NCBI GenBank assembly: GCA_964492425.1
Contig: CAZBKB010000005.1
Span: 12,468 to 76,467, forward strand
Origin: an uncultured Gammaproteobacteria bacterium
Lineage (GTDB): Bacteria; Patescibacteriota; Microgenomatia; Curtissbacterales; GWA2-41-24
Direction of reading: 5' to 3'
Length of the DNA: 64,000 bases
In this document: positions 5,836 through 64,000 of the stretch, in pieces
Numbering within the stretch: position 1 is the stretch's first letter
How the letters are laid out: every line of letters starts with the position of its first letter
Notes under the pieces: model-generated
Databases searched by the model: none
Told to the model about the DNA's origin: nothing
What the model saw: only the letters and a program-made list of their open reading frames with translations
Position numbers and translations under genes: made by a program

Positions 5836-7250
5836 AACTAGAAAAATTTTTAGATAAGCACACTGTAATTATCTTTGTTTTATTACTCCTAACTCACTTC
5901 ATTTTTCTAATTAATACAAAATTCACTCTATGGCCGGAGATGATGGTCTATCCCTATTTAACAAATAACGGGTTTGATCTTTATACAGATTTAATAAATC
6001 CTTACCCACCCTCTTTTATCTTTTTTTTGTCACAATTTTCTAAACTATTTAATTACTCGATAACAAGTTATCAATTATTAACATGGACAATAATAATATT
6101 TATAGATTTAATAATCTTCCTTCTGACTCAAAAAATTTTTAAAAAATATTATTTATCAATCACATCTTCAATTTTCTTCACATTTTTTTCAATTCCGTTT
6201 GGGATAAATCAATTATGGTTCGATCTTATTCAAACGCCTTTAATACTTTTCTCAGCATACAATTTTTATCTTTTTATAAAAGAAAAAAAACTTCAAAACC
6301 TAGATTTATCAGTACTTTTTGCGCTTGCAGCGTTTTTTATAAAGCAGCAAAGTATCTGGCTCATCATTTTTTACGTTTTTGTTGTTTGGATTATTTATAA
6401 ACGAAAAACATTACCATTGTTTTTAAAAATTAAAAAAACTTACGTATTTCTCGTTTTGGCAGTTATTGTACATTTGCTGCTATTTTTAAAATTTAAAACA
6501 CTTCCCGATTTCTTATTTTGGGTTATTTATTTTCCATTTTTTAAGGCATCGTCAATGCCCGGTTATCTTTCTCTTCCGACACTGAGGCAGCTTTTAACTA
6601 TATCTGGATTGGCTTTATTTTTTCTTCCTGTGGCAACAATCAAAAAAAGAGAATTTAAAATAATTCTTCTAAGTTCACTCCCACTCATGCTTTTTGCTTA
6701 CCCGAGATTTGATTACTTCCATGTTATTCCGGCCCTTGCAGTCCTATCGCTTCTTGTTGGAAAAAATATTCAGCTGGTTCTGAACTCATCACTAGTTGTA
6801 AAAATAGTTGTGACTACTGCAACAGTTATGTTATTAGTTTTTAACACACGTTTTTTAAGCAACAACTGGACCACGGAAATAAGATTTTTTGAAAATGATA
6901 TATTGGCAAGTGCCAGCATGATCTCCATATTCACCAGCGAACAAGATAAAATTTATATCCAAAACGGACCGGACCAGTTATTGCCGCTAGCACTTCGCCT
7001 ACCGCCCAAACCCTGGATAGACGAGTTTCCCTGGTATCTGGAAAATAACACTTACCAACAAAGGGTAACGTCAGCACTAAAAAATGAAAAAGTAAAATTC
7101 ATAGTTTATAAGGAATATTCATACGATGGGCAGTACGAACTTGGTTCATACATCCCACAAGAAATCGCCTCCTATGCCAATAACAACTACGAAAAGTATA
7201 TTCAGTTATCCGGTGGGCTCTGGCTAAATAAAAGAAAGTCCTTTAATTAA
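5832..7250 (+). CDS. Polytopic membrane protein, possible GT-C-like glycosyltransferase
   Basis: 472 aa with many TM helices and a C-terminal soluble domain. ATGA overlap with the upstream flippase. Family not recognised. Confidence 0.4.
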   Translation: MKLEKFLDKHTVIIFVLLLLTHFIFLINTKFTLWPEMMVYPYLTNNGFDLYTDLINPYPPSFIFFLSQFSKLFNYSITSYQLLTWTIIIFIDLIIFLLTQKIFKKYYLSITSSIFFTFFSIPFGINQLWFDLIQTPLILFSAYNFYLFIKEKKLQNLDLSVLFALAAFFIKQQSIWLIIFYVFVVWIIYKRKTLPLFLKIKKTYVFLVLAVIVHLLLFLKFKTLPDFLFWVIYFPFFKASSMPGYLSLPTLRQLLTISGLALFFLPVATIKKREFKIILLSSLPLMLFAYPRFDYFHVIPALAVLSLLVGKNIQLVLNSSLVVKIVVTTATVMLLVFNTRFLSNNWTTEIRFFENDILASASMISIFTSEQDKIYIQNGPDQLLPLALRLPPKPWIDEFPWYLENNTYQQRVTSALKNEKVKFIVYKEYSYDGQYELGSYIPQEIASYANNNYEKYIQLSGGLWLNKRKSFN

Positions 7251-7287
7251 ATCGGACCTTCTGATATATTCAAAAACAGCTGACATC

Positions 7288-8364
7288 ATGGCCAACATTG
7301 CGTTTATAAGTTTTTATTCTGGGGTTGTAGACAGGGGAGTTGAAACTTTCGTACACGAATTAGCAGATAGACTCTCAAAAAAACACAAAATAACAATTTT
7401 CCAGGCCGGTAGCACAATAAATAATCCTGCGGTAAGAACTTATCAAATAATTTCCAACGCAAAAATACCAAAATCCACTATCAACCCTTTGGCAAAAATA
7501 TATCTGGATCCGCAATCGTTAAAAATACTCTTATTCACGACGAAAGCAATACCAAAACTAATGAGAGGAAAATACGACTTGATAATTCCACTAAATGGTG
7601 GTTGGCAGGTTGCAATATGTAAACTGCTCTCGGCTTTTATGAATTTTAAAATTATGGTTACAGGACAGGCAGGAATTGGCAGTGACGATGCTTGGAATTT
7701 ATTTTTTCATCCCCACATTTTTATCGCGCTCACAAAGGCCCAGACCAGTTGGGCTAAAAAATTAACAAATGAAGTAAAAATATCTAATATCCCCAACGGT
7801 GTCGACCTTTCTAAATTTCATCCTAAAATTATGCCCAAAAAAATCAATCTTCCAAAGCCAATCATTGTATGCGCATCAGCATTGGTACCATACAAAAGAA
7901 TAGACCTGACAATAAAAGCCGCTGCAAAAGCCAACCTAAGCCTACTTTTGTTGGGTGATGGGCAAGACCATGGTTCTTTAGATACACTCGGCAAACGTCT
8001 CCTAAAAAATAGGTACTTGAGACTCGTGGTGCCTCATTCAGAAATCCCTCGCTACTTCAGGGCAGGCAATATCTTTAGCCTAGTATCAAAAACAGAAGCC
8101 TTTGGAATCTCGTATATAGAAGCTTTAGCATGTAACTTACCCGTGGTTTGTACCAACGATGAATCCCGGGCAGAAATTATCGGCGACGCAGGAATTTTAA
8201 CTTCGCCCCAGGACATCGACACTTATGCAAAAGATTTAAAAATTGCCGCAAATACCAATTATCGCAATAAACCTTACAACCAGTCGCTAAAATTCTCGTG
8301 GAATAAAATAGCTGAACTTTACGAAAGGGAAATTAGGGATTTGACTAGCGGTAAAAATATATGA
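7288..8364 (+). CDS. Glycosyltransferase family 4 (GT-B, GT1 superfamily)
   Basis: C-terminal EX7E-type motif region SKTEAFGISYIEALACNLPVVCTNDESRAEIIGDAGIL, typical of retaining GT4 enzymes. Confidence 0.75.
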   Translation: MANIAFISFYSGVVDRGVETFVHELADRLSKKHKITIFQAGSTINNPAVRTYQIISNAKIPKSTINPLAKIYLDPQSLKILLFTTKAIPKLMRGKYDLIIPLNGGWQVAICKLLSAFMNFKIMVTGQAGIGSDDAWNLFFHPHIFIALTKAQTSWAKKLTNEVKISNIPNGVDLSKFHPKIMPKKINLPKPIIVCASALVPYKRIDLTIKAAAKANLSLLLLGDGQDHGSLDTLGKRLLKNRYLRLVVPHSEIPRYFRAGNIFSLVSKTEAFGISYIEALACNLPVVCTNDESRAEIIGDAGILTSPQDIDTYAKDLKIAANTNYRNKPYNQSLKFSWNKIAELYEREIRDLTSGKNI

Positions 8365-11441: not shown

Positions 11442-12562
11442 AAATAGGAATAGACATATCTCAAATTGTATACAAGACTGGAGTCTCAACGTATACAGAA
11501 AATTTAGTAAAAGCCCTCCTGAAAATAGATAAAAAAAACCAATATCTACTTTTTGGGACATCACTAAGGCAATACACTAATCTTAATAAATTTAAAAAAG
11601 AATTAAATGACACGAGCAAAGTGGATTTTAAAATATTCATGGCGCCAATCAGCTCTTTTGAGGTTTTATTTAATAAAATTCATATCTTTAGCATAAACAA
11701 ATTAATTGGCGATGTGGATGTTCTGCATACATCGGACTGGATAGAACCAAAAGTTATTTCAACGAAGACTAAAAAGATTACAACAATCCACGATATGGTT
11801 CCATTCCTTTTCCCCTCAACGATTCCGAAAAGAATTCTTAATAATCAACTGTGCAGAATGGAAATAGTAAAAAAAGAATCAAACATTATACTCACCCCAT
11901 CCAAAGCAAGCAAAGAAGACATTGTAAAATTTTTAGATTTTCCAGCGGAAAAAATTAAAGTTACACCAGAAGCTCCCGCAAGGGATTTTAAACCGCAACC
12001 AGAGGAAACAATTAATGAAGTATTAGCAAAATATAAAATAAAAAGACCATATATTTTATCTGTCAGCACCCAAGAACCACGTAAAAACATTCACAAATTA
12101 ATAGATGCTTTCGAAAATTTAGTAAAAGATAGAACGGATATCACACTAGTTTTAACTGGTAAAAAAGGTTGGGGTCAAGCGCTCGATGTTGTACCAAGCA
12201 CCATACAGACTGGCTTTGTCACGGAAAAAGAATTAATTGCACTTTATGCAGGGTGTAGAGTATTTGTTTATCCATCACTTTACGAGGGTTTCGGGCTACC
12301 TGTTCTTGAGGCGATGGCTTGTGGAGCACCGGTTGTCACATCAAATAATTCTGCAATGGCAGAAATCGCCGAGAATTCTGCCATTCTTGTCAACCCTAGA
12401 AGTGATGGCCAAATAAGAAAAGCGATAGAGTTGGTACTTGATCTTGATCCTGAAAATTACCAAAAGATGGTACGCGCAAGCCTGGACAAAGCGCGTCAAT
12501 ATACATGGGCAAAAACCGCGAAAGAAACCTTAAATATTTATGAAGAACTTGCAAGGAGTTAA
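11426..12562 (+). CDS. Glycosyltransferase family 4
   Basis: YPSLYEGFGLPVLEAMACGAPVVTSNNSAMAEIAENSAILVNP, a canonical GT4 C-terminal motif block. Confidence 0.8.
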   Translation: MGSAVKIGIDISQIVYKTGVSTYTENLVKALLKIDKKNQYLLFGTSLRQYTNLNKFKKELNDTSKVDFKIFMAPISSFEVLFNKIHIFSINKLIGDVDVLHTSDWIEPKVISTKTKKITTIHDMVPFLFPSTIPKRILNNQLCRMEIVKKESNIILTPSKASKEDIVKFLDFPAEKIKVTPEAPARDFKPQPEETINEVLAKYKIKRPYILSVSTQEPRKNIHKLIDAFENLVKDRTDITLVLTGKKGWGQALDVVPSTIQTGFVTEKELIALYAGCRVFVYPSLYEGFGLPVLEAMACGAPVVTSNNSAMAEIAENSAILVNPRSDGQIRKAIELVLDLDPENYQKMVRASLDKARQYTWAKTAKETLNIYEELARS

Positions 12563-12564
12563 GC

Positions 12565-13659
12565 TTGATAATTGGTCTTGACGGAAACGAAGCAAATGTT
12601 AATAGTAGGGTAGGCTCCGGTGTATATGCCTATGAGCTTCTAAAAGAATTTGCAAAAAGCAAAAATCACAACTTTATTGTTTATTTAAAAGAAAAACCCT
12701 TGAACGATTTGCCCAAACAAACGGCAAATTTTAAATACCGGGTTTTCGGCCCGAAAAAACTTTGGACACAGCTGGCTCTGCCTGTCAATCTCTTAATTGG
12801 TAAAAAACCAGATGTTTTCTTTTCGATGGGGCATTACGGTCCCAGATTTTCGAAAGTTCCTTACACAATAACAATTTTTGATCTTTCCTACCTCCACTTC
12901 CCGGAGCTTTTCAAAAAGAGCGATTTGTATCAACTGACCAATTGGTCGGCATATTCTATAAGAGGAGCAAAACACATTTTTGCAATATCAAGATCTACTA
13001 AGGATGACATTGTAAAAAATTACAAAGTGGATCCGTCAAAAGTCACGGTTACATACATGGGTTACGATAATTCGCGGTTTAAGCCTCAAGCAAAGCAGAA
13101 AATCGATGTAGTTAAGAAAAAATATAAACTTCCCGAAGAATACATTATATTTATTGGTACGATTCAACCTCGAAAAAATATTGAATTTTTACTGGAAGCT
13201 TTTTCTAAGTTAGGAAACCAAAAATTAAAACTTGTAATCGTAGGTAGAAAAGGCTGGTTATTCGAGCAGATCTTCCAAAAAGTTAAAGAACTTCAATTGG
13301 CTTCAGAGGTGATCTTTACAGGGTATGTTTCAAATGCAGATTTGCCTGCATTATTATCCGGCGCAAAACTTTATGTTTCCCCTTCCCTCTGGGAAGGTTT
13401 TGGAATTCCTACAATTGAAGCCCAAGCGTGTGGAGTACCTACTGTCGTTTCAAGCGTTTCATCACTTCCAGAGGTAGTAGGGGAAAGTTCAATACTTATA
13501 AATCCAAAAAGCGTTGAATCAATTTCACAGGGAATGATTAAAGTTATTCGCGATAACAGCTTGGAAACAAGGTTAATACAAGATGGCTTTCAAAACGCAC
13601 GACGTTTTTCCTGGGAAAAGTGTGCACAGCAAACACTTTCAGTCTTAGAAAAACTATAA
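12565..13659 (+). CDS. Glycosyltransferase family 4
   Basis: SPSLWEGFGIPTIEAQACGVPTVVSSVSSLPEVVGESSILINP. A paralog-like neighbour of the previous gene. Confidence 0.8.
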   Translation: MIIGLDGNEANVNSRVGSGVYAYELLKEFAKSKNHNFIVYLKEKPLNDLPKQTANFKYRVFGPKKLWTQLALPVNLLIGKKPDVFFSMGHYGPRFSKVPYTITIFDLSYLHFPELFKKSDLYQLTNWSAYSIRGAKHIFAISRSTKDDIVKNYKVDPSKVTVTYMGYDNSRFKPQAKQKIDVVKKKYKLPEEYIIFIGTIQPRKNIEFLLEAFSKLGNQKLKLVIVGRKGWLFEQIFQKVKELQLASEVIFTGYVSNADLPALLSGAKLYVSPSLWEGFGIPTIEAQACGVPTVVSSVSSLPEVVGESSILINPKSVESISQGMIKVIRDNSLETRLIQDGFQNARRFSWEKCAQQTLSVLEKL

Positions 13660-13711
13660 TAAATACAAATATTATTTAAATTTTAATCTAGTGAATTAAA
13701 TTACGAAAAAG

Positions 13712-24453: not shown

Positions 24454-24660
24454 ATGAAGACTACCCTAGTGCATGATGACCCTTCGATAGACTCAGGGCA
24501 GTTGCTCAATCTCGAAGGTCTTTTTATTCTGAGCGAAGCAAAAATCAGAGACGAAGTTCTCTATTTGGGCTATGGAGATAAGGTGTTTCCACTATAGCAC
24601 TTGCAACTTTTCTGTCAATGCTACAAATTGACATCAAACCTGATGATATGTAATATGTGA
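24454..24660 (+). repeat. Cassette-junction module R1: remnant of the GT 5' end plus a conserved 114-bp block plus promoter
   Basis: It begins atgaagactaccctagtgcatgatgac (M K T T L V H D D, matching MKIALVHDDF of the GT at 28348). Positions 24506-24619 are 114/114 identical to 27547-27660. Confidence 0.7.
24628..24656 (+). promoter_or_regulatory. Near-consensus sigma70-like promoter driving cassette gene 1 (TTGACA-17-TAATAT)
   Basis: ttgaca at 24628-24633, a 17-nt spacer, then taatat at 24651-24656. The ATG at 24665 is only 8 nt downstream of the -10, so the mRNA would be leaderless or have a very short leader. Confidence 0.5.
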
Positions 24661-27489: not shown

Positions 27490-27711
27490 CTCATGCGGAT
27501 TGCGTTAGTACACGATGACCCTTCAATTTCATTCAGGGTTATAAATTCAATCTCGAAGGTCTTTTTATTCTGAGCGAAGCAAAAATCAGAGACGAAGTTC
27601 TCTATTTGGGCTATGGAGATAAGGTGTTTCCACTATAGCACTTGCAACTTTTCTGTCAATAATCTAAAAGTTGACACGTAACTAATCCCAGGTATAGAAT
27701 CAGCCTGTTTT
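27490..27711 (+). repeat. Cassette-junction module R3 (GT 5' remnant plus conserved 114-bp block plus promoter)
   Basis: atgcggattgcgttagtacacgatgac (M R I A L V H D D). 27547-27660 is identical to 24506-24619. Confidence 0.7.
27671..27700 (+). promoter_or_regulatory. Sigma70-like promoter driving cassette gene 3 (TTGACA-18-TAGAAT)
   Basis: ttgaca at 27671-27676 and tagaat at 27695-27700. The ATG at 27712 follows with no Shine-Dalgarno sequence. Confidence 0.45.
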
Positions 27712-56148: not shown

Positions 56149-57252
56149 ATGTTAATTAAACCCGATGTCAACAGATTCGCAAAAATAAAAGTGCTTGGAA
56201 TCGGCGGCGGTGGAACAAATGCCCTAAATTCCATGATTACTCAATCACAAATTCAAGGTGTAGATTTCGTCGCTATCAACACTGATCAACAGCATTTACT
56301 TGCATGTCACGCTCAGACAAAAGTGCAGATAGGTGATGGCTTAACCAAAGGCCTAGGTGCTGGTGCGAATCCAGAATTAGGTAAGAAGGCGGCCGAAGAG
56401 TCCCTTGAGCGAATAAAAGATGTTGTAACCGGAGCTGACATGGTTTTTTTAACATATGGTTCCGGTGGTGGAACAGGTACCGGAGCTGGCCCGGTAATTG
56501 CCGAAATGGCAAAAAAACTTGGTATTCTTACAGTTGCAGTAGTTACCAAACCATTTGGTTTCGAAGGCACAAGAAGAATGATAGTCGCAGACGAAGGTAT
56601 AGATGCACTCAGAGACAAGGTCGATACTCTTATCGTAATCCCCAACCAAAAACTTTTGGAAGTTGTTGACAAAAATGTGTCGCTTCTCGAAGCATTCAAG
56701 CTTGCAGATTCAGTACTTTCACAAGGAGTACAGGGAATCTCCGATATTATAGTAATGCCTGGTTTAATCAACGTAGATTTTGCAGATGTTAAGGCGATCA
56801 TGATCAATGCCGGTTCGACTTTAATGGGCGTCGGCACGGCATCCGGTGAAAACAGGGCAGCGGCAGCGGCTAGATCGGCTATCGCATCACCACTTCTTGA
56901 TGCATCAATAGATGGTGCCAGAGGAGTACTTTTTAATATCACTGGCGGATCAGACATGACCATGAGTGAAGTTGATGAAGCAGCCAAAGTTATCACGACC
57001 CAGGCAGACCCGGATGCGCAGATAATTTTTGGTGCAGCAATAGACGAAAAGTTAATTGACCAGGTTAAGGTAACAGTTGTGGCAACAGGTTTCGACGAAA
57101 CTAGGAGAAAGTATGTACAGATTACACCTCCAGACCTTTCGATGATGCCACAAAGTCAACAATCAGACGACCAAATCGATAAGTCGCCTACTAACGGCCA
57201 GATAGATGATGACGAATTCGACGTTCCCACATTCCTGCGTCAGATAAGATAA
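56149..57252 (+). CDS. ftsZ: Cell division GTPase FtsZ
   Basis: [15 protein letters not shown] and the tubulin signature [12 protein letters not shown]. The C-terminal tail ends [14 protein letters not shown]. Confidence 0.9.
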
Positions 57253-57421
57253 CTTCTGTTTAAGTTTCCAAAGTAAGTAAAAGACTGAAGGGTGCTAACA
57301 ATATATAGCACGATTCCCTTGTCATAACAGGCAATAGGGGAGTTTGGTACTTGCGGAACTCGTTGTTCCAATAGGCTAATCGCTTGAATTAAGAGAAGAA
57401 AATTGCTAGAATAATAGCTAC

Positions 57422-58561
57422 ATTCCTCGCAAGAATCCTTCTCAGCCGCAAGTTGCTCCCCGAAAGGGAGCATGCATATTTCAGAAAAGGACTTCAAGTC
57501 TTTTATAACTGTAAAACAGAACTTGGCACCACAATCCGTGAGGCATTGTTTAAGTCGTCTCGGCATCATCAACAGGTGGTTTGCAGACAAAGACCTGAAC
57601 AAAGACAATGTCGAGAAGTTTTATATGGAGCTTAAAGCCAAAGGCTTAAAAAATAATTCTCTCAATACTTATCACACAACATTCAGTCAGATTAGAAATT
57701 ACTGCCTAGATAGAGGGCTTCCAGCCGATTTCTATAGCGGCTTTAAGGCATACAAGAAGACAAAACCGGACATACTTGTTTTTACCCCAGAAGAAATTGA
57801 AAAAATAATAAGCACAGAACTTACTTACGGAAAGTTTTACGGCAAAGATGTTTCTTTCTTAAACTTCAGGTACAGAACGCTCACTATGTTTCTTGCATAT
57901 ACAGGTTGCAGATATTCAGAAGCAGCAGACCTCCAGATAAAGCGGCTAGATTTGTCTGCTGGAAGGGCCATTTTTATAAATACTAAAACAAACGAAAATA
58001 GGCCTGCCTATATAACTGAACCGCTTAAATCAAATCTTATGCAACTAGTAGATGGTAGAACTCCAGATGAATTTGTTTTCAGAAACGCAGTCGAAAAGCA
58101 CATTCATGTCTCTGACTATAGTGCAGACCTGAAAAGGCGTGCTAGGACTGCTGGTGTTACCAAAAGAACATTTCCACATAACTTCAGGCACACTTATATA
58201 ACACTTATGCTCGAGGCGGAAGTGCCAATAACAGAAGTGGCATCACTTGTTGGTCACAAGGACATCCAAACCACATACGATACATATATGCATCTCGCGG
58301 ATAGGACTTTGCAGAAAGCTGCCATGAGGCACCCGCTAGTTAGGAGAAATGTAAACCCAGCAGAAATAGTAAAAACTGTCAAAGAAACCCTTGAAAGTCT
58401 TCACCTAGAGAACGACGCAAGGTTTACCTTCAGCCTTTCAGAAACATCGAACGGATTGCAGTTTTCTCTTCAAACAAAGAACGAATAGGGGACTGAATCA
58501 GTTATAATTCAATCCCCTTTCTCAGCTCGCAAGCTACTCCGCCTGAATTCCTCGCAAGAAT
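57422..58561 (+). mobile_element. Integrase module bounded by a perfect 15-bp direct repeat (attcctcgcaagaat)
   Basis: The direct repeat lies at 57422-57436 and 58547-58561. Adjacent imperfect repeats ccttctcagccgcaagttgctcc (57437-57459) and ctttctcagctcgcaagctactcc (58517-58540) are arranged in swapped order. The module lies immediately after ftsZ at the start of a defense island. Confidence 0.4.
57472..58488 (+). CDS. Tyrosine site-specific recombinase/integrase (phage integrase family)
   Basis: N-terminal SAM-like core-binding domain. The catalytic domain has R (TGCRYSE), HNFRHTYIT, VGHKDIQTTYDTYMH (H-x-x-R ... Y). Higher G+C than its surroundings. Confidence 0.8.
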   Translation: MHISEKDFKSFITVKQNLAPQSVRHCLSRLGIINRWFADKDLNKDNVEKFYMELKAKGLKNNSLNTYHTTFSQIRNYCLDRGLPADFYSGFKAYKKTKPDILVFTPEEIEKIISTELTYGKFYGKDVSFLNFRYRTLTMFLAYTGCRYSEAADLQIKRLDLSAGRAIFINTKTNENRPAYITEPLKSNLMQLVDGRTPDEFVFRNAVEKHIHVSDYSADLKRRARTAGVTKRTFPHNFRHTYITLMLEAEVPITEVASLVGHKDIQTTYDTYMHLADRTLQKAAMRHPLVRRNVNPAEIVKTVKETLESLHLENDARFTFSLSETSNGLQFSLQTKNE

Positions 58562-58725: not shown

Positions 58726-59330
58726 GTTATTTCGGAGGGCCCCTAGAACCTTCCCTCCCTCGCTCCCTCTGGGAATATACATAGTTAAATTAGCTATATA
58801 TATCTTGCTGCCACCCAGAATCTTGTCTGGGTCAAAGGCTGCACATTCCCGTCGGTCGCTTCGGTCGGTCGCCACTAATCTTCAGCTAGTTTTATTTTTA
58901 GTCGCCTAACTACTCGTAGCGGTCGAGCCCTCTGCGACAATAAAAAAACACCGGGACGAAATGAATTTCTTCATCTCGTTTTGCCAGTGTTTGGGTCGAA
59001 AAATGCTTTCTCGACTTAAATCGACTATAACTCAAATCGACACAAATGTCAAGTTTAGCCTATTCGGACAACATAATTGTAATAACTTACAGACCATGAA
59101 AGAGGTTATTAGTTTTAGCAGAAACACTTGAACAGATTTAAGGATTTCTGTACCTTTAATGTGTCGAAATACCTCCCATATATCTCTATATAGTTTATGA
59201 ACTATGTATTATCTCTTATACATAATATATATTATGATGCGTGTGCCTAGAGCGTCGCCATCTAAATTAAAAAAGGTACTAAACTATCAAGGACTAACCG
59301 ACCAGTTCTTGTTATAATCATTACACCTCT

Positions 59331-60101
59331 ATGAATATCTCTGATTTAAAACTTTTTGCAGAAAGCAACGATATAAAAATGGCAAATCAGAGCACAATTG
59401 CATCGGAAGCAGCAGACATTATTACGAAACGATATAACTACAGCCTTGATGCTATTAAAATTAACTTTGATAAGCTTTTGTATGAAACAGAAAGAGAAAC
59501 TTACAAAGTTTATTTGAAATATCAGAAGGAATACGGGAAAAAAGTATTTGACAAATTCACAGCAGAGTTAATAAAAAACAAAGAATTAAAACAACTCGGA
59601 GAAGTTGGTGAAGTTTTAGGTAATTATTTCGAAGTTTTTGATAAGTTTTTTCTTTCTTTAGCACAATCTAGGAAAGCCCGAGCTGGTAAGTCTTTTGAGG
59701 CTATACACAATGCATTATTTAAAGAACTGTCTTATCCATTCGATGAACAAAGGGTGATAAACGGAAAGCCAGATTTCATTATGCCCTCATATGACCATTA
59801 CATGAATAATGCACCAGACTGCATTATCTTTACTGCAAAAAGAACGCTAAGAGAAAGGTGGCGACAAATTGTAATAGAAGGTACTAGAGGTTTGGGCTTT
59901 TTTCTTGCGACAATCGACGAAAACATAAGTGCAAACCAAGTCTTAGAGGCACACAACAACAGAATCTTCATAGTCTGTCCAGAAATAATTAAGAAGGAAA
60001 AATATTCAAATGCAATTAATGTATTAAGTTTTACCCAATTTTTTAAAGATTATCTTGACCCAGCATTAGCAAGATGGAAAAGGAATGAGATAGTTTCATA
60101 A
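59331..60101 (+). CDS. Type II restriction endonuclease (specificity unknown)
   Basis: 256-aa ORF ending 2 nt before the C5-MTase gene. It has a PD-(D/E)xK-like arrangement (KPDFIMP ... [10 protein letters not shown]). The call rests mainly on genomic context. Confidence 0.45.
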
Positions 60102-60103
60102 AT

Positions 60104-61195
60104 ATGAAGAAGAAGTTCACATTCATTGATTTATTCGCCGGAATAGGAGGGACTAGAATTGCATTTGAAGGTGCTGGAGGTGAATGTGTATTTACTTCAG
60201 AGTGGGATAAGTATTGTCAATTTACATATCTGGCAAATTTTAAGGAGAAACCACATGGTGATATTAGAGTAATTGATGAAAAAAACATTCCAGACCATGA
60301 CCTGCTCTTAGCAGGGTTTCCATGTCAGCCATTTTCAATAGCAGGCGTTTCTAAAAATAAAAGCTTGGGCAGAGCCCACGGTTTCAAACATGTTAAGCAG
60401 GGAAATCTTTTTTTTGACATTGCAAGGATAATTCTTGAAAAAAGACCAAAAGCATTTTTACTCGAGAATGTAAAAAATCTTAAAACTCATGACAAAGGTA
60501 ACACATTTAAGGTTATAAGTGAGACATTGGATAGCCTTGGGTATGAGACTTTTGTTGAAGTATTGGACGCGAAATCTTATGTACCGCAACACAGGGAAAG
60601 AATTTTTATTGTGGGATTCCGAAAGGAAATAAGTAAAAGTATTAAATTCAATTTTCCAAAATCTCATAAACGAAATAAAAACTTAAAAGATATACTCGAA
60701 AAAACCGTTGATAGTAAATATACCCTGTCGGATAAGCTCTGGAATTATTTACAAAATTATGCAAAAAAACACAAAGAAAAAGGTAACGGATTTGGTTTTG
60801 GTTTAATTGACCCCGAAACGGATGATATTACTCGAACGCTAAGTGCTAGGTACTACAAGGATGGTTCGGAAATTTTAATTAGGCAGAAAAATAAGAACCC
60901 ACGAAGGCTTACACCTCGAGAGTGTGCACGATTAATGGGATTTGACGACAGCTTTAAAATAGCAGTTTCGGACACGCAGGCATACAAGCAATTCGGCAAT
61001 GCTCTTTGTGTGCCTTTGGTAAGTTCTATAGCAAAAGAAATGATTAAAGGTTTAAACTCTTATGGAATTATAAAAAATTATGGACAAACTGACGACTCAA
61101 GAAAGAAGCTGGAATATGTCCAGAATCAAATCAAGAAATACAAAGCCAGAGATGAAGCTGAGAAGATTTCTCCACAAGTCAGGCTACCGATATAG
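60104..61195 (+). CDS. dcm: DNA (cytosine-5)-methyltransferase
   Basis: Motif [11 protein letters not shown], motif [10 protein letters not shown] (catalytic Cys), ENV (FLLENV) and motif [10 protein letters not shown]. Its 3' end overlaps vsr by 116 nt in another frame. Confidence 0.85.
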
Positions 61196-61487
61196 AATAC
61201 ATTACCCCATTACTGGTAGGCCAGATATCGCCTTTCCATCAAAACAAATAGCTCTATTCATTCATGGTTGTTTTTGGCATCAGCATGGTTGCAAAAACTC
61301 AGTGATTCCCAAAACCAATACAGATTTCTGGATGCATAAATTACAATCAAATGTTGAACGAGACTCAAAAGTTACGAAACTGTTAAAAAAAGACGGTTGG
61401 ACTGCTTATACCTTATGGGAGTGCGAACTTGAGGAACGATTTGAACATGAAGCAGGAAGGTTGGTGAAAAAATTACACAATCGATAA
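61080..61487 (+). CDS. vsr: Very short patch repair endonuclease Vsr
   Basis: [58 protein letters not shown] and [11 protein letters not shown] are collinear with E. coli Vsr. Confidence 0.8.
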
Positions 61488-61530
61488 AATGGGCATTCTT
61501 TTTTACCCTGTAGTATAATTTTCACGCCTA

Positions 61531-63006
61531 ATGACGATAACAAAATCTGAATACTTATTATTTCTTAAACATCCAGCTTGGCTGTGGCTTAAAAAACATG
61601 CCAAAGACAAATTACCAGCAACATCTGCAGAACTGCAAAGACTTTTTGATTTGGGACATGTTTTCGAGACATACGCTGAAAAACTTTTTCCCAATGCAAT
61701 AAAGTTAGGTTTTCGAGAATATCAGGAGTATTTGGACCTTCCCACCAAGACAGTTGAACTTCTGAATAATGGCGTAAAAACTATTCTGCAAGGAAGAATT
61801 GAAATCAATAATCTAACATGTATTTTCGATTGTTTAGACAAAGTTGGTAAGGATGAATTTGACTTGATAGAAATTAAGGGAAGCACTTCAGCGAAACCCG
61901 AGCATCATTTAGACCTCGCATTTCAGCTTCTTGTTATAGAGTCTGCCGGTTACAAGGTAAGGAACATTAAAATAATCCATGTAAACAATGCTTTTATAAG
62001 GAATGGTGAAATATCTCCTGATGAAATAACTACTGTTACCGATGCTACCAAAGAAGTGCGTGCCTTGGAAGAATTTACAAAGACAAGCATTAAAAAGGCA
62101 TTTGAGATAATCAATTCTGACATCATGCCAAGTTTATCGCCTCGACACGCCTCAACAGGTGCACTAAAAGAATGGATAGAAATTCATTCATACATAAACG
62201 GGGGGTTGCCAAGTCACCATGTTTATAATATTTCATCCCCAAACCCCGCCGCATTAGGTGAGCTTGAAGACCTGCATATAGAAAAGATTGAAGATATTCC
62301 AGATGATTTCAACCTTAGTGCAAAGCAAAGATGGCAAGTAATTGCAAATAAGAGTGGGAGGCAAACAGATAAGAAGAAAATTAAGGAGTTTATAAAATCA
62401 ATTGAATATCCGCTTTACTTCTTAGATTACGAAACTTTAGCAGGAGTAATTCCACCGTTCGATGGATTAAAACCATATGAGCAATTACCGTTTCAGTATT
62501 CTCTGCACATTTTAAAAAAAAGAGATTCAAAGCTGGAGCACGAGGAATATTTGCATACCGATAGCACTAACCCTTTGCCTCAACTTTTGAAACAATTAAA
62601 AAATGATATTGGAACAAAAGGAACAGTCTTAGTGTGGAACGAATCTTTTGAAAAAAGATGCAATGACTTGATGGCTATGCTTGCTCCAGAATATGCTGAC
62701 TTTTTAAAATCAGTTAATGCAAGAATTATTGACTTAATGAAGCCATTTGCTAAAGGATGGTTTGTAGACAAAGAATTTAGGGGGAGCTCATCTATTAAAA
62801 AAGTTTTACCAGCCTTGGTTAACAAATTATCTTACAAGGAGTTGTCAATTAGTGAAGGAGGCTTAGCTCAATCCATATGGATGGATACTTTTTTAAATGG
62901 GGAGAACACACAACAGAAAGAAAAAATTGCGAGTGACCTTCGGGAGTATTGTAAGACTGATACTCTCGCAATGTTTGAAATCTACAAACTGCTTAAAAAT
63001 TTTTAA
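61531..63006 (+). CDS. Two-nuclease protein: N-terminal Cas4/RecB-like PD-(D/E)xK domain plus C-terminal DEDDy 3'-5' exonuclease-like domain (DUF2779-like)
   Basis: N-terminus: FDCLDK ... DLIEIKGSTSAK (D ... ExK) then HHLDLAFQLLV. C-terminus: YFLDYETL (Exo I DxE), VWNESFEKRC (Exo II-like), YCKTDTLAMFEIY (Exo III YxxxD). Confidence 0.5.
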   Translation: MTITKSEYLLFLKHPAWLWLKKHAKDKLPATSAELQRLFDLGHVFETYAEKLFPNAIKLGFREYQEYLDLPTKTVELLNNGVKTILQGRIEINNLTCIFDCLDKVGKDEFDLIEIKGSTSAKPEHHLDLAFQLLVIESAGYKVRNIKIIHVNNAFIRNGEISPDEITTVTDATKEVRALEEFTKTSIKKAFEIINSDIMPSLSPRHASTGALKEWIEIHSYINGGLPSHHVYNISSPNPAALGELEDLHIEKIEDIPDDFNLSAKQRWQVIANKSGRQTDKKKIKEFIKSIEYPLYFLDYETLAGVIPPFDGLKPYEQLPFQYSLHILKKRDSKLEHEEYLHTDSTNPLPQLLKQLKNDIGTKGTVLVWNESFEKRCNDLMAMLAPEYADFLKSVNARIIDLMKPFAKGWFVDKEFRGSSSIKKVLPALVNKLSYKELSISEGGLAQSIWMDTFLNGENTQQKEKIASDLREYCKTDTLAMFEIYKLLKNF

Positions 63007-63823
63007 ACCAGTCCTCGTCAATCGTTACTACTTCTTCTGTTCTCACAAAGATACCTAAACCAAGCTCCTTCATTTTCTCGACCAGCTGCTCTCCATCAAC
63101 CAAGTCAATAGGGGTTGAACCATCTCTCGATGCTTCAAGTTTAGCGTCCCTTGTGAATGAGCCTGTTGTAATTAGCAAACCTTTATCAGCTCTACCCACC
63201 ATTGTTCCTTTAAATTCTCTTATTTGTTGAGAGGTAACAGTTCCTTGGTATCTCTTACACTGAAAGATTACTTTGAAGCTAAGAAAACCTCCAATTCTTA
63301 CAATGCCAGTCCCGTCAATTCCACCATCACCTGATTTTCCTGTCACCTTAACTTGAATGAAACCAGCTTCCCTCAAAACTCTCTGGCAAAGCCGTTCAAA
63401 TTCTGAAGGGTCAAGGGACTTTAAAATCTCTAAGAGCTCATCTTGCCAATCAGGTTGTTTTGTGTCTGATTTTCCAGTTTCTTGTACTTCATCATCAACT
63501 TCTGTTTTGTCAATATTTTTGACTGTTTTATTAACCTCATCCTTGTCAACAGATTTCGTTTCTACACCCTTGCTAGTTAAAGACCAGACACCTCTCGAAG
63601 AATTTTCAAGTAGACCAAATCTTTTTAGATAATTCCTCGCCCATGCAAGCCTGTAGCTAAGTTTAGTTCTATTGCCTCTATGAATCTCACTAATTTCTGC
63701 ATCACTAAGTTTTAAGATTTCTGCAACTTTTTCCTCAAGTTCAGAAACAGAAGCAGAGTTACCAAGTTCGTGTAACGCCTCAAGTAAAGGATTAAATAAA
63801 CCATCATATTTAGGTACAGTCAT
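62993..63823 (-). CDS. mrr: Type IV (modification-dependent) restriction endonuclease Mrr
   Basis: N-terminal Mrr_N winged helix (LFNPLLEALHELGNSASVSELEEKV). C-terminal Mrr_cat PD-(D/E)xK: GKSGDGGIDGTGI ... VIFQCKRY. It converges on and overlaps the upstream nuclease gene by 14 nt. Confidence 0.8.
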   Translation of the reverse strand: MTVPKYDGLFNPLLEALHELGNSASVSELEEKVAEILKLSDAEISEIHRGNRTKLSYRLAWARNYLKRFGLLENSSRGVWSLTSKGVETKSVDKDEVNKTVKNIDKTEVDDEVQETGKSDTKQPDWQDELLEILKSLDPSEFERLCQRVLREAGFIQVKVTGKSGDGGIDGTGIVRIGGFLSFKVIFQCKRYQGTVTSQQIREFKGTMVGRADKGLLITTGSFTRDAKLEASRDGSTPIDLVDGEQLVEKMKELGLGIFVRTEEVVTIDEDWFKNF

Positions 63824-63914
63824 AATATTATTTTACAATAAATATCCCTTCAGTGTGTTCTAAATAATTTATTTTATAGCAGAGTTTGGGTTTAAAAAAT
63901 TATAATAAGGTTAC

Positions 63915-64000
63915 ATGAAACCTACTGAAGTGATGAGCACACTCGCAAACCCTTGGAAAAAATACAATGAGTTTTTTGACAAAGGCTGTAGGAATATTTG
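63915..64000 (+). CDS. 5' end of an ORF truncated by the window edge
   Basis: ATG 63915 opens MKPTEVMSTLANPWKKYNEFFDKGCRNI... to the window end. Too short to classify. Confidence 0.15.
   Translation, partial: MKPTEVMSTLANPWKKYNEFFDKGCRNI

Follow-up and report, generated by a model that had tools for sequence, protein, structure and literature searches.

Islands of the lambda type target, and restore, the 3' end of a conserved gene, as do those found in tRNA and tmRNA genes and SCCmec at the 3' end of rlmH/orfX. With the TnpI/IRS system of Tn4430 and attI1 of integrons, an inverted-repeat core is combined with direct-repeat accessory sites beside the recombinase gene, and each element has a single crossover site; in xerS/difSL the site sits just upstream of the recombinase gene. 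The tycheposons of Prochlorococcus are presented as tyrosine-recombinase integrative elements that lie behind island variability in streamlined genomes (bioRxiv 10.1101/2020.12.28.424599). Here, we describe a 64,000-nucleotide stretch of Microgenomates DNA (contig CAZBKB010000005.1, positions 12,468 to 76,467; hereafter ‘the window’), in which a tyrosine recombinase gene, int, lies just past the division gene ftsZ and is bracketed by two copies of a 15-bp direct repeat (A), each accompanied by a second, less perfectly repeated motif (B on the left, B' on the right). We consider it probable that this locus is the left part of an integrative element of at least 6.75 kb, lodged in the 3' end of ftsZ, and that A and B are internal sites that bind the integrase and control its gene. 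Elements of this family, which measure 2.5-7 kb and insert at the end of ftsZ in Microgenomates, a group within the candidate phyla radiation (CPR), are apparently undescribed; in the library covered, full-text searches turned up no account of integration into the ftsZ tail in CPR, and none of this family of recombinases there.

The attachment site in the ftsZ tail

Attachment takes place at the final ~10 codons of ftsZ. Orphan ftsZ tails, which encode ...[IV]P[AT]FLRQ.. and a stop codon with no gene attached, bound elements in L001, L055, L014, L018, L022, L007, L020, L124, L026 and L010 (related loci and Int proteins are referred to by L and P numbers, respectively); the elements so delimited span 2.5-7 kb, and the same tails also reveal tandem arrays and tail-flanked toxin-antitoxin cassettes. 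These orphan copies carry host-type synonymous tails. When attL, attR and empty sites are aligned, the sequence from GCGTCAGATAAGATAA-CTTCT (57237) onward is the same in the window, L001 and L055, whilst upstream of CCCACATTCCT each follows its host; as sequence is shared from GCGTCAGATAAGATAA on and of host type before CCCACATTCCT, the crossover falls within ~57224-57236 (TTCCCACATTCCT). On this alignment, the last five codons of FtsZ in the window would be supplied by the element. In L001 (9756-9785 versus 13655-13693), the displaced tail reads ...QIRKPK-stop and the element-supplied tail ...VPTFLRQIR-stop, such that the basic C-terminal variable extension of FtsZ has been removed.

Comparison of related genomes indicates that this DNA is mobile. 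The int gene follows ftsZ in 3 of ~45 FtsA-anchored division and cell wall (dcw) clusters with enough post-ftsZ sequence (~7%), and in the closest element-free relative, L044 (FtsA 93%, FtsZ 95%), DNA homology to the window stops exactly at the ftsZ stop codon, at 57252. Empty sites have other accessory genes directly past ftsZ, with no promoter P, A or B. Identity of Int is also decoupled from that of its host, because L001 and L021 share 94% of FtsA and 96% of FtsZ, yet 61% of Int, and because the Spearman correlation of Int with FtsA/FtsZ is low (0.29-0.40, compared with 0.76 for FtsZ with FtsA).

One relative has been captured in both of its forms. One and the same Int protein, P0111 (65% identical to that of the window), is encoded both in an integrated copy and on three circularly permuted contigs (6541, 6493 and 6469 nt), whose terminal overlaps of 127, 79 and 55 nt reduce them all to a single 6,414-bp circle. 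The circle junction is a 32-nt sequence, found at both ends of the integrated copy, that corresponds to the reverse complement of the last nine ftsZ codons plus stop (IPAFLRQRN-stop), the far copy being a synonymous variant. The integrated form runs from a host response-regulator gene through ~6 kb of element genes, a helix-turn-helix gene, a ribbon-helix-helix (RHH) gene, P-A-B-int, a 192-aa gene and hairpin-B'-x-A to ftsZ on the opposite strand, with A-right 80 nt inside the att core. The integrated and circular forms of this relative, together with the orphan tails and the empty L044 site, bear out the original prediction, made from the window alone, that the integrase heads a mobile island at ftsZ; that prediction also took the 3' flank of ftsZ as the possible attB, and was right about the 3' end of the gene, although the site lies not in the flank but inside the last ~10 codons.

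For the window itself, accessory DNA starts ~190 nt to the left of A-left and includes the int promoter, so the 15-mers cannot be the ends of the element. No second ftsZ tail was found in the window, by peptide search or by DNA pattern, from which it follows that the element measures at least 6.75 kb, runs past 64000 and has its attR beyond the window. Its far end would be an orphan ...P[TA]FLRQ..-stop tail, preceded by an arm of the ...ATGACTNAGGA type. The direct repeat of the ftsZ 3' end at both element ends is seen in sister elements, the window showing attL only (57223-57252).

The ftsZ tail is also a stacking hotspot, with tandem arrays of tails in L010 (135, 7169, 7931), L026 (70, 5986), L134 (4675, 5746), L008/L011 (one contig) and L099 (10516, 12061). 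Some tail-to-tail intervals hold just a toxin-antitoxin pair, with a zeta toxin in L134, and the interval in L099 holds HEPN/MNT along with a lone hairpin-B'-A unit without int. In L026, a second and distant tyrosine integrase (6303-7385; 27% identical), followed by phage-like genes with tail-fibre and virion matches, comes right after an orphan ftsZ tail, and an unrelated phage may be using the same attB. A phage origin for the family itself was considered and set aside: only one member is present in IMG/VR, next to a distinct phage that has an integrase of its own. Short contigs of 1.2 kb, considered as excised int mini-circles, proved to be plain fragments with no terminal overlap.

The bracket around the integrase gene

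The 15-mer ATTCCTCGCAAGAAT has exactly two copies in the window, both on the plus strand, and no further copy was found there, even at 3 mismatches. B and B' are imperfect copies of one another (about 20/24 positions by eye, with a 13-nt core at 85%) and lie on the inner side of their respective 15-mers, giving the order A-B...B'-A; both pairs of repeats are thus as first described. The A copies are placed symmetrically, 36 nt before the int ATG and 59 nt after its stop codon, with int starting 220 nt past the end of ftsZ. By chance, some 2-4 perfect 15-mer pairs are expected per 64 kb (an estimate from N^2/4^15), and 3/100 shuffles yielded at least two matches at up to 2 mismatches; it is the symmetric placement of A, the similarity of B to B' and the same layout in 25 further related elements that mark the bracket as non-random. 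The window holds no tRNA gene and no Rfam RNA match.

We examined 33 distinct Microgenomates elements, drawn from GTDB species representatives (20), IMG/VR (1), an FtsA-anchored metagenome scan (3) and, for the rest, exact-protein look-ups. The bracket is present in 26 of the 33, 20 being direct and 6 inverted; flanks in the remaining 7 are too short to assign a layout. Direct elements follow the order of the window: promoter, A, B, a hairpin in which the 3' half of B pairs with the Shine-Dalgarno (SD) sequence, int, 3' hairpin, B', a 5-9-nt spacer and A. A sigma-70-type promoter, TTGAnn-N17-TAnAAT, occupies the equivalent place in nearly all relatives, with A following 7-9 nt on. In inverted elements, the right unit (hairpin-B'-x-A) is complete but lies 3-5.5 kb downstream and on the opposite strand. 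Direct and inverted configurations have arisen at least 3-4 times independently. What lies between int and the right unit varies: nothing, a 60-aa open reading frame (ORF), a 192-aa gene, TerB_N with a 126-aa gene, or 3-5 kb of sequence. In nearly all loci the recombinase gene adjoins ftsZ, being either co-directional or part of a complete module, promoter included, that has been flipped, and one A/B unit always sits 80-230 nt from the att core. As the same bracket recurs in 26/33 elements, we regard it as a maintained feature and not a scar; textbook att architecture does not explain a bracket of two bipartite sites around int.

The A word matches between left and right within an element, over 8-15 nt, and differs between elements (examples being GTTTTACGTAGCAA, GACTTCTCACATCC, GCTTCTTACAGTT and GTTTCCTACA). 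It forms a short inverted repeat, whose arm complementarity is locus-specific (3.55 versus 2.66 of 5, with 0/10,000 permutations reaching the observed value), and direct reading of alignments identifies its left half, RTTCCT, with the ATTCCT half-site of the att core. Searches for A and B motifs in the far att arms of ten delimited elements, and for a degenerate third copy of A in the stretch from ftsZ to the promoter, gave nothing above chance level. Several interpretations of A were tried and rejected. Overall, A is no mimic of the ftsZ tail (local scores of 6.5, versus 6.2 for shuffles), and a ‘parental versus hybrid’ scheme of site symmetry failed (4.00 versus 3.58 of 6, p = 0.2), within-site symmetry not exceeding that across sites. 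Nor is A a stable RNA or single-stranded DNA hairpin under selection for self-complementarity, with folding energies of 0 to -6 kcal/mol and a native versus chimera comparison of 8 versus 9 (p = 0.53); since A is not a stable hairpin, and native pairs are no more stable than left/right chimeras, its weak palindromy better suits a protein dimer on duplex DNA. In the murG-ftsQ gap of L002 (6560-6620, minus strand), a tandem 39-nt unit, acagtgccaNNcNATCCTCGCAANcgctNggatctaat, carries an A-like word, ATCCTCGCAA, in a different palindrome.

B and B' share a 20-mer that is conserved across elements (consensus CTCAAACCACAAGCTACTCC), and they co-vary within elements (identity 0.654 versus 0.596, permutation p = 5e-5). 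Both hairpins are conserved with co-varying stems: the leader hairpin is kept in 18/18 loci (mean z -3.5), and the 3' hairpin recurs across loci with a mean z of -3.7. B is under two constraints, as a DNA motif and as an anti-SD sequence, whereas B' holds the purer family consensus and does not follow the SD of each element; at the level of sequence, this argues for a protein-binding role of B/B'.

The int product scores 96.4 bits against PF00589 (Pfam gathering cut-off 27.1), and the catalytic residues R147, K172, H236, R239, H262 and Y272 are invariant across 92 sequences. Its homologs, of which there are more than 300 at 53-96% identity, are all from Patescibacteria and mostly from Microgenomates. 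The fold is that of a canonical two-domain enzyme, nearest to XerA, XerH, IntI4 and the Tn1549 Int and also matching lambda Int; the closest curated families and structures are XerA, XerD, XerC and XerH. The protein is without a lambda-like N-terminal arm-binding domain, the SAM-like core-binding domain standing at its very start, and the model has an extra C-terminal helix plus beta-hairpin (predicted local distance difference test, pLDDT, 81-88), which makes this add-on a candidate reader of B. In the public annotation, the protein (P0003; 287 aa and 100% identical) is given a start 51 codons downstream of the one used throughout the family (M.I.E.DF...; window 57472-57624), probably because the start codon was miscalled in the deposited record.

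A model for the paired sites and its rivals

Synthesis of these observations leads us to a model in which the element carries its own copy of the sequence coding for the FtsZ C-terminus and the Xer-like integrase would recombine this copy with the ftsZ tail of the chromosome, such that integration would rebuild the C-terminus of FtsZ from element DNA and leave an orphan tail at the far end. Sites for the integrase, and possibly for RHH, are the most likely reading of A and B/B', with B perhaps being read by the extra C-terminal domain or by RHH itself. With A-left at or near the predicted transcription start and B pairing with the SD sequence, the left unit would repress both transcription and translation of int; as a pair, the A/B units would act in the manner of accessory arm sites and could form a loop containing the gene between them. 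We suggest that the A copies would be kept alike by gene conversion, or by exchanges that the integrase now and then mediates between them.

Several points weigh against this model. The non-palindromic centre of A (CGC, CAC, TAC, ACG and others) matches between left and right within an element and differs between elements, which a pure binding-site model fails to explain. Half-sites stand 3 nt apart in A, as against 6-7 nt in the att core; the module is found in both orientations relative to the att core, so that neither unit keeps a fixed arm position; and the six elements with an inverted right unit resemble the substrate, or the product, of a recombination. In the window, moreover, neither the far end nor a circular form of the element has been seen, and its status leans on the sisters L001 (Int 85%) and L055 (Int 60%), which have the same A word, spacer and RHH.

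A nested cassette or switch might account for some of this, with the A sites as real crossover cores and B/B' as inner arms, so that int would be excisable (direct) or invertible (inverted) inside a larger element; by deleting or flipping its own gene, the integrase could then fix the element in position or cut int off from promoter P. Core plus inner arm at both ends is, formally, the topology of attL...attR, and an A word that is matched within elements and variable between them, asymmetric centre included, is the usual sign of an overlap-identity requirement; the existence of both direct (20) and inverted (6) configurations, with their repeated independent origins, and the variable content between int and the right unit point the same way. 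We nevertheless find this unlikely, in that no B'-x-A-B or P-A-downstream product junction appears in 40+ loci, which include 60+ contigs with three identical Int proteins, and a pattern scan of Joint Genome Institute (JGI) metagenome contigs, itself a weak negative with no positive-control count, returned 0 B'-x-A-B junctions. Each of the three multi-contig Int sets shows one orientation, with none confirmed as inverted class, and the P0023 set (L134, inverted class) has a single gene order. Deletion would furthermore destroy the mobility of the element, at least 5 pairs are mismatched at the final position of the 7-nt centre, and symmetry is no higher within sites than across them. Bolder still, and in our judgement improbable, is the idea that the integrase gene is ‘floxed’ by its own enzyme, with A/B as working secondary recombination sites inside an FtsZ-rewriting element. 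Were this so, a promoter-less gene would be excised as a 1.1-kb circle (direct) or flipped (inverted), constituting a built-in, self-limiting lock or switch, and, by targeting the C-terminal peptide of FtsZ, the element would also be able to change the tail of the division protein.

In the original prediction, the 15-mers were taken for the cores of att sites, or for scars of tandem integration, marking off an integrase-only element at the head of a separate defence island. Perfect 15-bp direct repeats do flank the integrase alone, with arm-like repeats inside them, and homology between some close relatives stops exactly at A-right. Yet the int promoter lies outside the bracket and always travels along with it (in three contexts and both orientations), empty relatives lack everything from the ftsZ stop on and not from A, there is no third copy of A, A is unlike the ftsZ tail, and in the family member whose junction has been demonstrated, it is the ftsZ tail that forms this junction, A lying 80 nt further in. 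Accessory DNA thus starts at the ftsZ tail, relatives show neither an empty bracket nor a product junction, and the identical arrangement, offered at the outset as the finding that would speak against such an element, is fixed among them; we regard this explanation as highly improbable.

Little better can be said of an RNA device, which we judge very unlikely and in which the convergent RHH transcript would cross anti-A and anti-B', end at the 3' hairpin and pair with the A-B 5' untranslated region (UTR) of int, freeing the SD sequence or triggering decay; the agreement of left and right units would then be due to base-pairing and not to a bound protein. The 3' hairpin does score as a minus-strand terminator and the RHH stop codon overlaps A-right, so that the RHH 3' UTR would hold anti-A and anti-B'; the 3' half of B is a conserved anti-SD sequence, and a matching but variable A word is what RNA pairing predicts. 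Half of the differences between B and B' are transversions, however, with wobble-compatible transitions not significantly enriched (47 versus 32, p = 0.11); elements of the convergent type have a separate terminator between ftsZ and A-right, through which no gene reads; and B' follows the family consensus in place of each element's SD.

A housekeeping Xer-like recombinase with adjacent dif-like sites, serving dimer resolution in the manner of XerS/difSL, is the explanation to which we give the least credence of all. Its nearest families and structures are indeed Xer proteins (XerA, XerD, XerC, XerH), and the gene adjoins ftsZ, but Int misses every Xer equivalog cut-off by a wide margin (XerA 106/220, XerD 86/330, XerC 85/335 and XerS 34/267 bits). 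Only ~7% of related dcw clusters contain the gene, whose phylogeny is incongruent with that of the host; it occurs on a 6.4-kb circle and in tandem arrays, and two active dif sites 1.1 kb apart would delete it. Two further candidates were rejected. An integron-like system lacks both an IntI signature (TIGR02249 gives 56.5 bits against a cut-off of 265, in an alignment limited to residues 208-280) and attC-like hairpin folding of A (0 to -6 kcal/mol), and an inversion switch of the Fim/Rci/shufflon type does not fit the direct repeats of the window, inverted units being found in six relatives.

Cargo, significance and comparison with known systems

The features of the locus, in which the element carries anti-phage genes as cargo, are collected in Table 1. 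Across the family, int is often accompanied by an RHH gene, a candidate regulator or directionality factor. In the window, L001, L055 and L144, this gene is convergent with int and abuts A-right; in L005, L007, L010, L012, L026 and L124 it is found upstream, and there its stop codon overlaps the -35 box. The 3' hairpin between int and B' probably ends transcription in both directions.

Table 1. Features of the ftsZ-int locus and its cargo in the window (SD, Shine-Dalgarno; RHH, ribbon-helix-helix).
Feature	Position	Strand	Basis or remark
ftsZ, target gene of the element	56149-57252	+	ORF; FtsZ homologs syntenic in all dcw loci
ftsZ tail VPTFLRQIR-stop, attL core region	57223-57252	+	attL/attR/empty alignment; end of L044 homology; sister orphan tails; P0111 circle junction
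Element-borne spacer, att core to int promoter	57253-57383	+	Homologous in window, L001, L055, L017, L021, L002; missing from empty sites
int promoter P, TTGAAT-17-TAGAAT with TG extension	57384-57412	+	-10 box ends 9 nt before A-left
A-left, 15-mer ATTCCTCGCAAGAAT	57422-57436	+	Short imperfect palindrome at or near predicted transcription start
B, conserved accessory motif	57437-57459	+	Family consensus ..CTCAAACCACAAGCTACTCC; 3' half doubles as anti-SD
Leader hairpin GCTCCCC/GGGAGC(A)	57454-57472	+	Sequesters SD up to ATG
int, 338-aa Xer-like tyrosine recombinase	57472-58488	+	Extra C-terminal helix and beta-hairpin
3' hairpin GGGGACTGAAT..ATTCAATCCCC	58487-58518	none	Terminator-like score on minus strand
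B', second copy of accessory motif	58517-58540	+	Closer to family consensus than B
A-right, second 15-mer ATTCCTCGCAAGAAT	58547-58561	+	Final base is first base of RHH stop codon, opposite strand
Small RHH gene, 54 aa	58561-58725	-	Weak Omega-repressor/HicB-type match
Non-coding leader	58726-59330	none	Conserved with L001; strong minus-strand promoter at 59052-59024; ~45-nt motif at ~59229
Element cargo	59331-64000	mixed	Pfam; no second ftsZ tail in window
EcoRII-C-like endonuclease	59331-60101		Pfam
Dcm methylase	60104-61195		Pfam
Vsr	61080-61487		Pfam
DUF2779/Cas4-like nuclease	61531-63006		Pfam
Mrr	62993-63823	-	Pfam

On the minus strand of the leader, a near-consensus promoter, TTGACA-17-TATAGT (11/12), points toward RHH from ~300 nt upstream of the 54-aa start, a position that implies a long leader or else an unannotated small RNA or ORF within 58726-59330. 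A ~45-nt motif, ATATTATGATGYGYRTRCMTAGARYGTCKCCATYTAAA, immediately precedes the variable cargo operon in the window (~59229-59275) and in L001 (~11845-11890), and is also found directly past ftsZ in L046 (~10600), where there is no integrase; it may represent a leader or promoter shared by exchangeable cargo. Within the cargo, the 3'-terminal ~115 nt of the Dcm ORF (61080-61195) also belong, in another frame, to the Vsr ORF, an arrangement that we take to be the classic dcm-vsr overlap.

Genes neighbouring the family are typical of mobile elements, and include G2P Rep, Toprim primase, XRE and RHH genes as well as toxin-antitoxin pairs. A Phage_CRI/G2P rolling-circle replication initiator (75 bits) is present in the inverted-class cargo of L015 (9166-10212) and L018 (9046-10104), and, to judge from their gene content, some family members look like inovirus-like or rolling-circle plasmid replicons.

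Elsewhere in the window, between 23300 and 28400, repeated intergenic leaders precede successive ORFs, with a perfect 114-nt repeat (24506-24619 and 27547-27660), a 109-nt pair (85%; 25483 and 28273) and families of 43 nt (24438/25542/27477/28332) and 38 nt (25503/26861/28293). These share no sequence with A or B, and we find no support for the earlier suggestion that the recombinase acts in trans on this array, in which neither motif occurs.

Patescibacteria, or CPR bacteria, have tiny genomes in which gene gain and loss are little understood, and ftsZ-tail elements provide a concrete mechanism for island-type variability near the division cluster of Microgenomates, occurring as free circles and in tandem stacks with a cargo of restriction-modification, toxin-antitoxin, replication and other genes. 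Because the element supplies the last codons of FtsZ, its integration can alter the C-terminal variable tail of an essential protein. The compact integrase/att pair, with a 338-aa enzyme and a ~30-bp core, could also be developed into a tool for the genetics of organisms that at present resist manipulation.

With XerS/difSL and XerH/difH, the system shares an Xer-like sequence and fold and a cognate-looking site immediately upstream of the gene; unlike them, it is accessory and mobile and not a conserved single-copy housekeeping gene, and no 28-31-bp dif-type site was found. The left unit recalls the TnpI/IRS system of Tn4430 and attI1, in that a weakly palindromic core (A) is followed by a direct accessory motif (B), overlapping the promoter and leader, but here two units flank int and the crossover takes place elsewhere, at the ftsZ tail. 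Tycheposons reportedly target tRNA genes, and we know of no bracketed integrase among them; ftsZ elements belong to a different host phylum and target the ftsZ tail. Both are small integrative elements that carry cargo and form arrays at fixed sites.

The closest parallels are to be drawn with lambda-type islands. In both, a tyrosine integrase gene lies beside att and the element's copy of the target 3' end keeps the gene intact; the target end is directly repeated at the two element ends, with attP on the excised circle; and elements carrying accessory or defence cargo pile up in tandem at one hotspot. In contrast to those islands, ftsZ elements have no far-arm accessory motifs, int being bracketed instead by two copies of a bipartite site, and their integrase has a C-terminal add-on in place of an N-terminal arm-binding domain; finally, they insert into the coding tail of ftsZ, a gene essential for division, such that the last codons of FtsZ are themselves rewritten.

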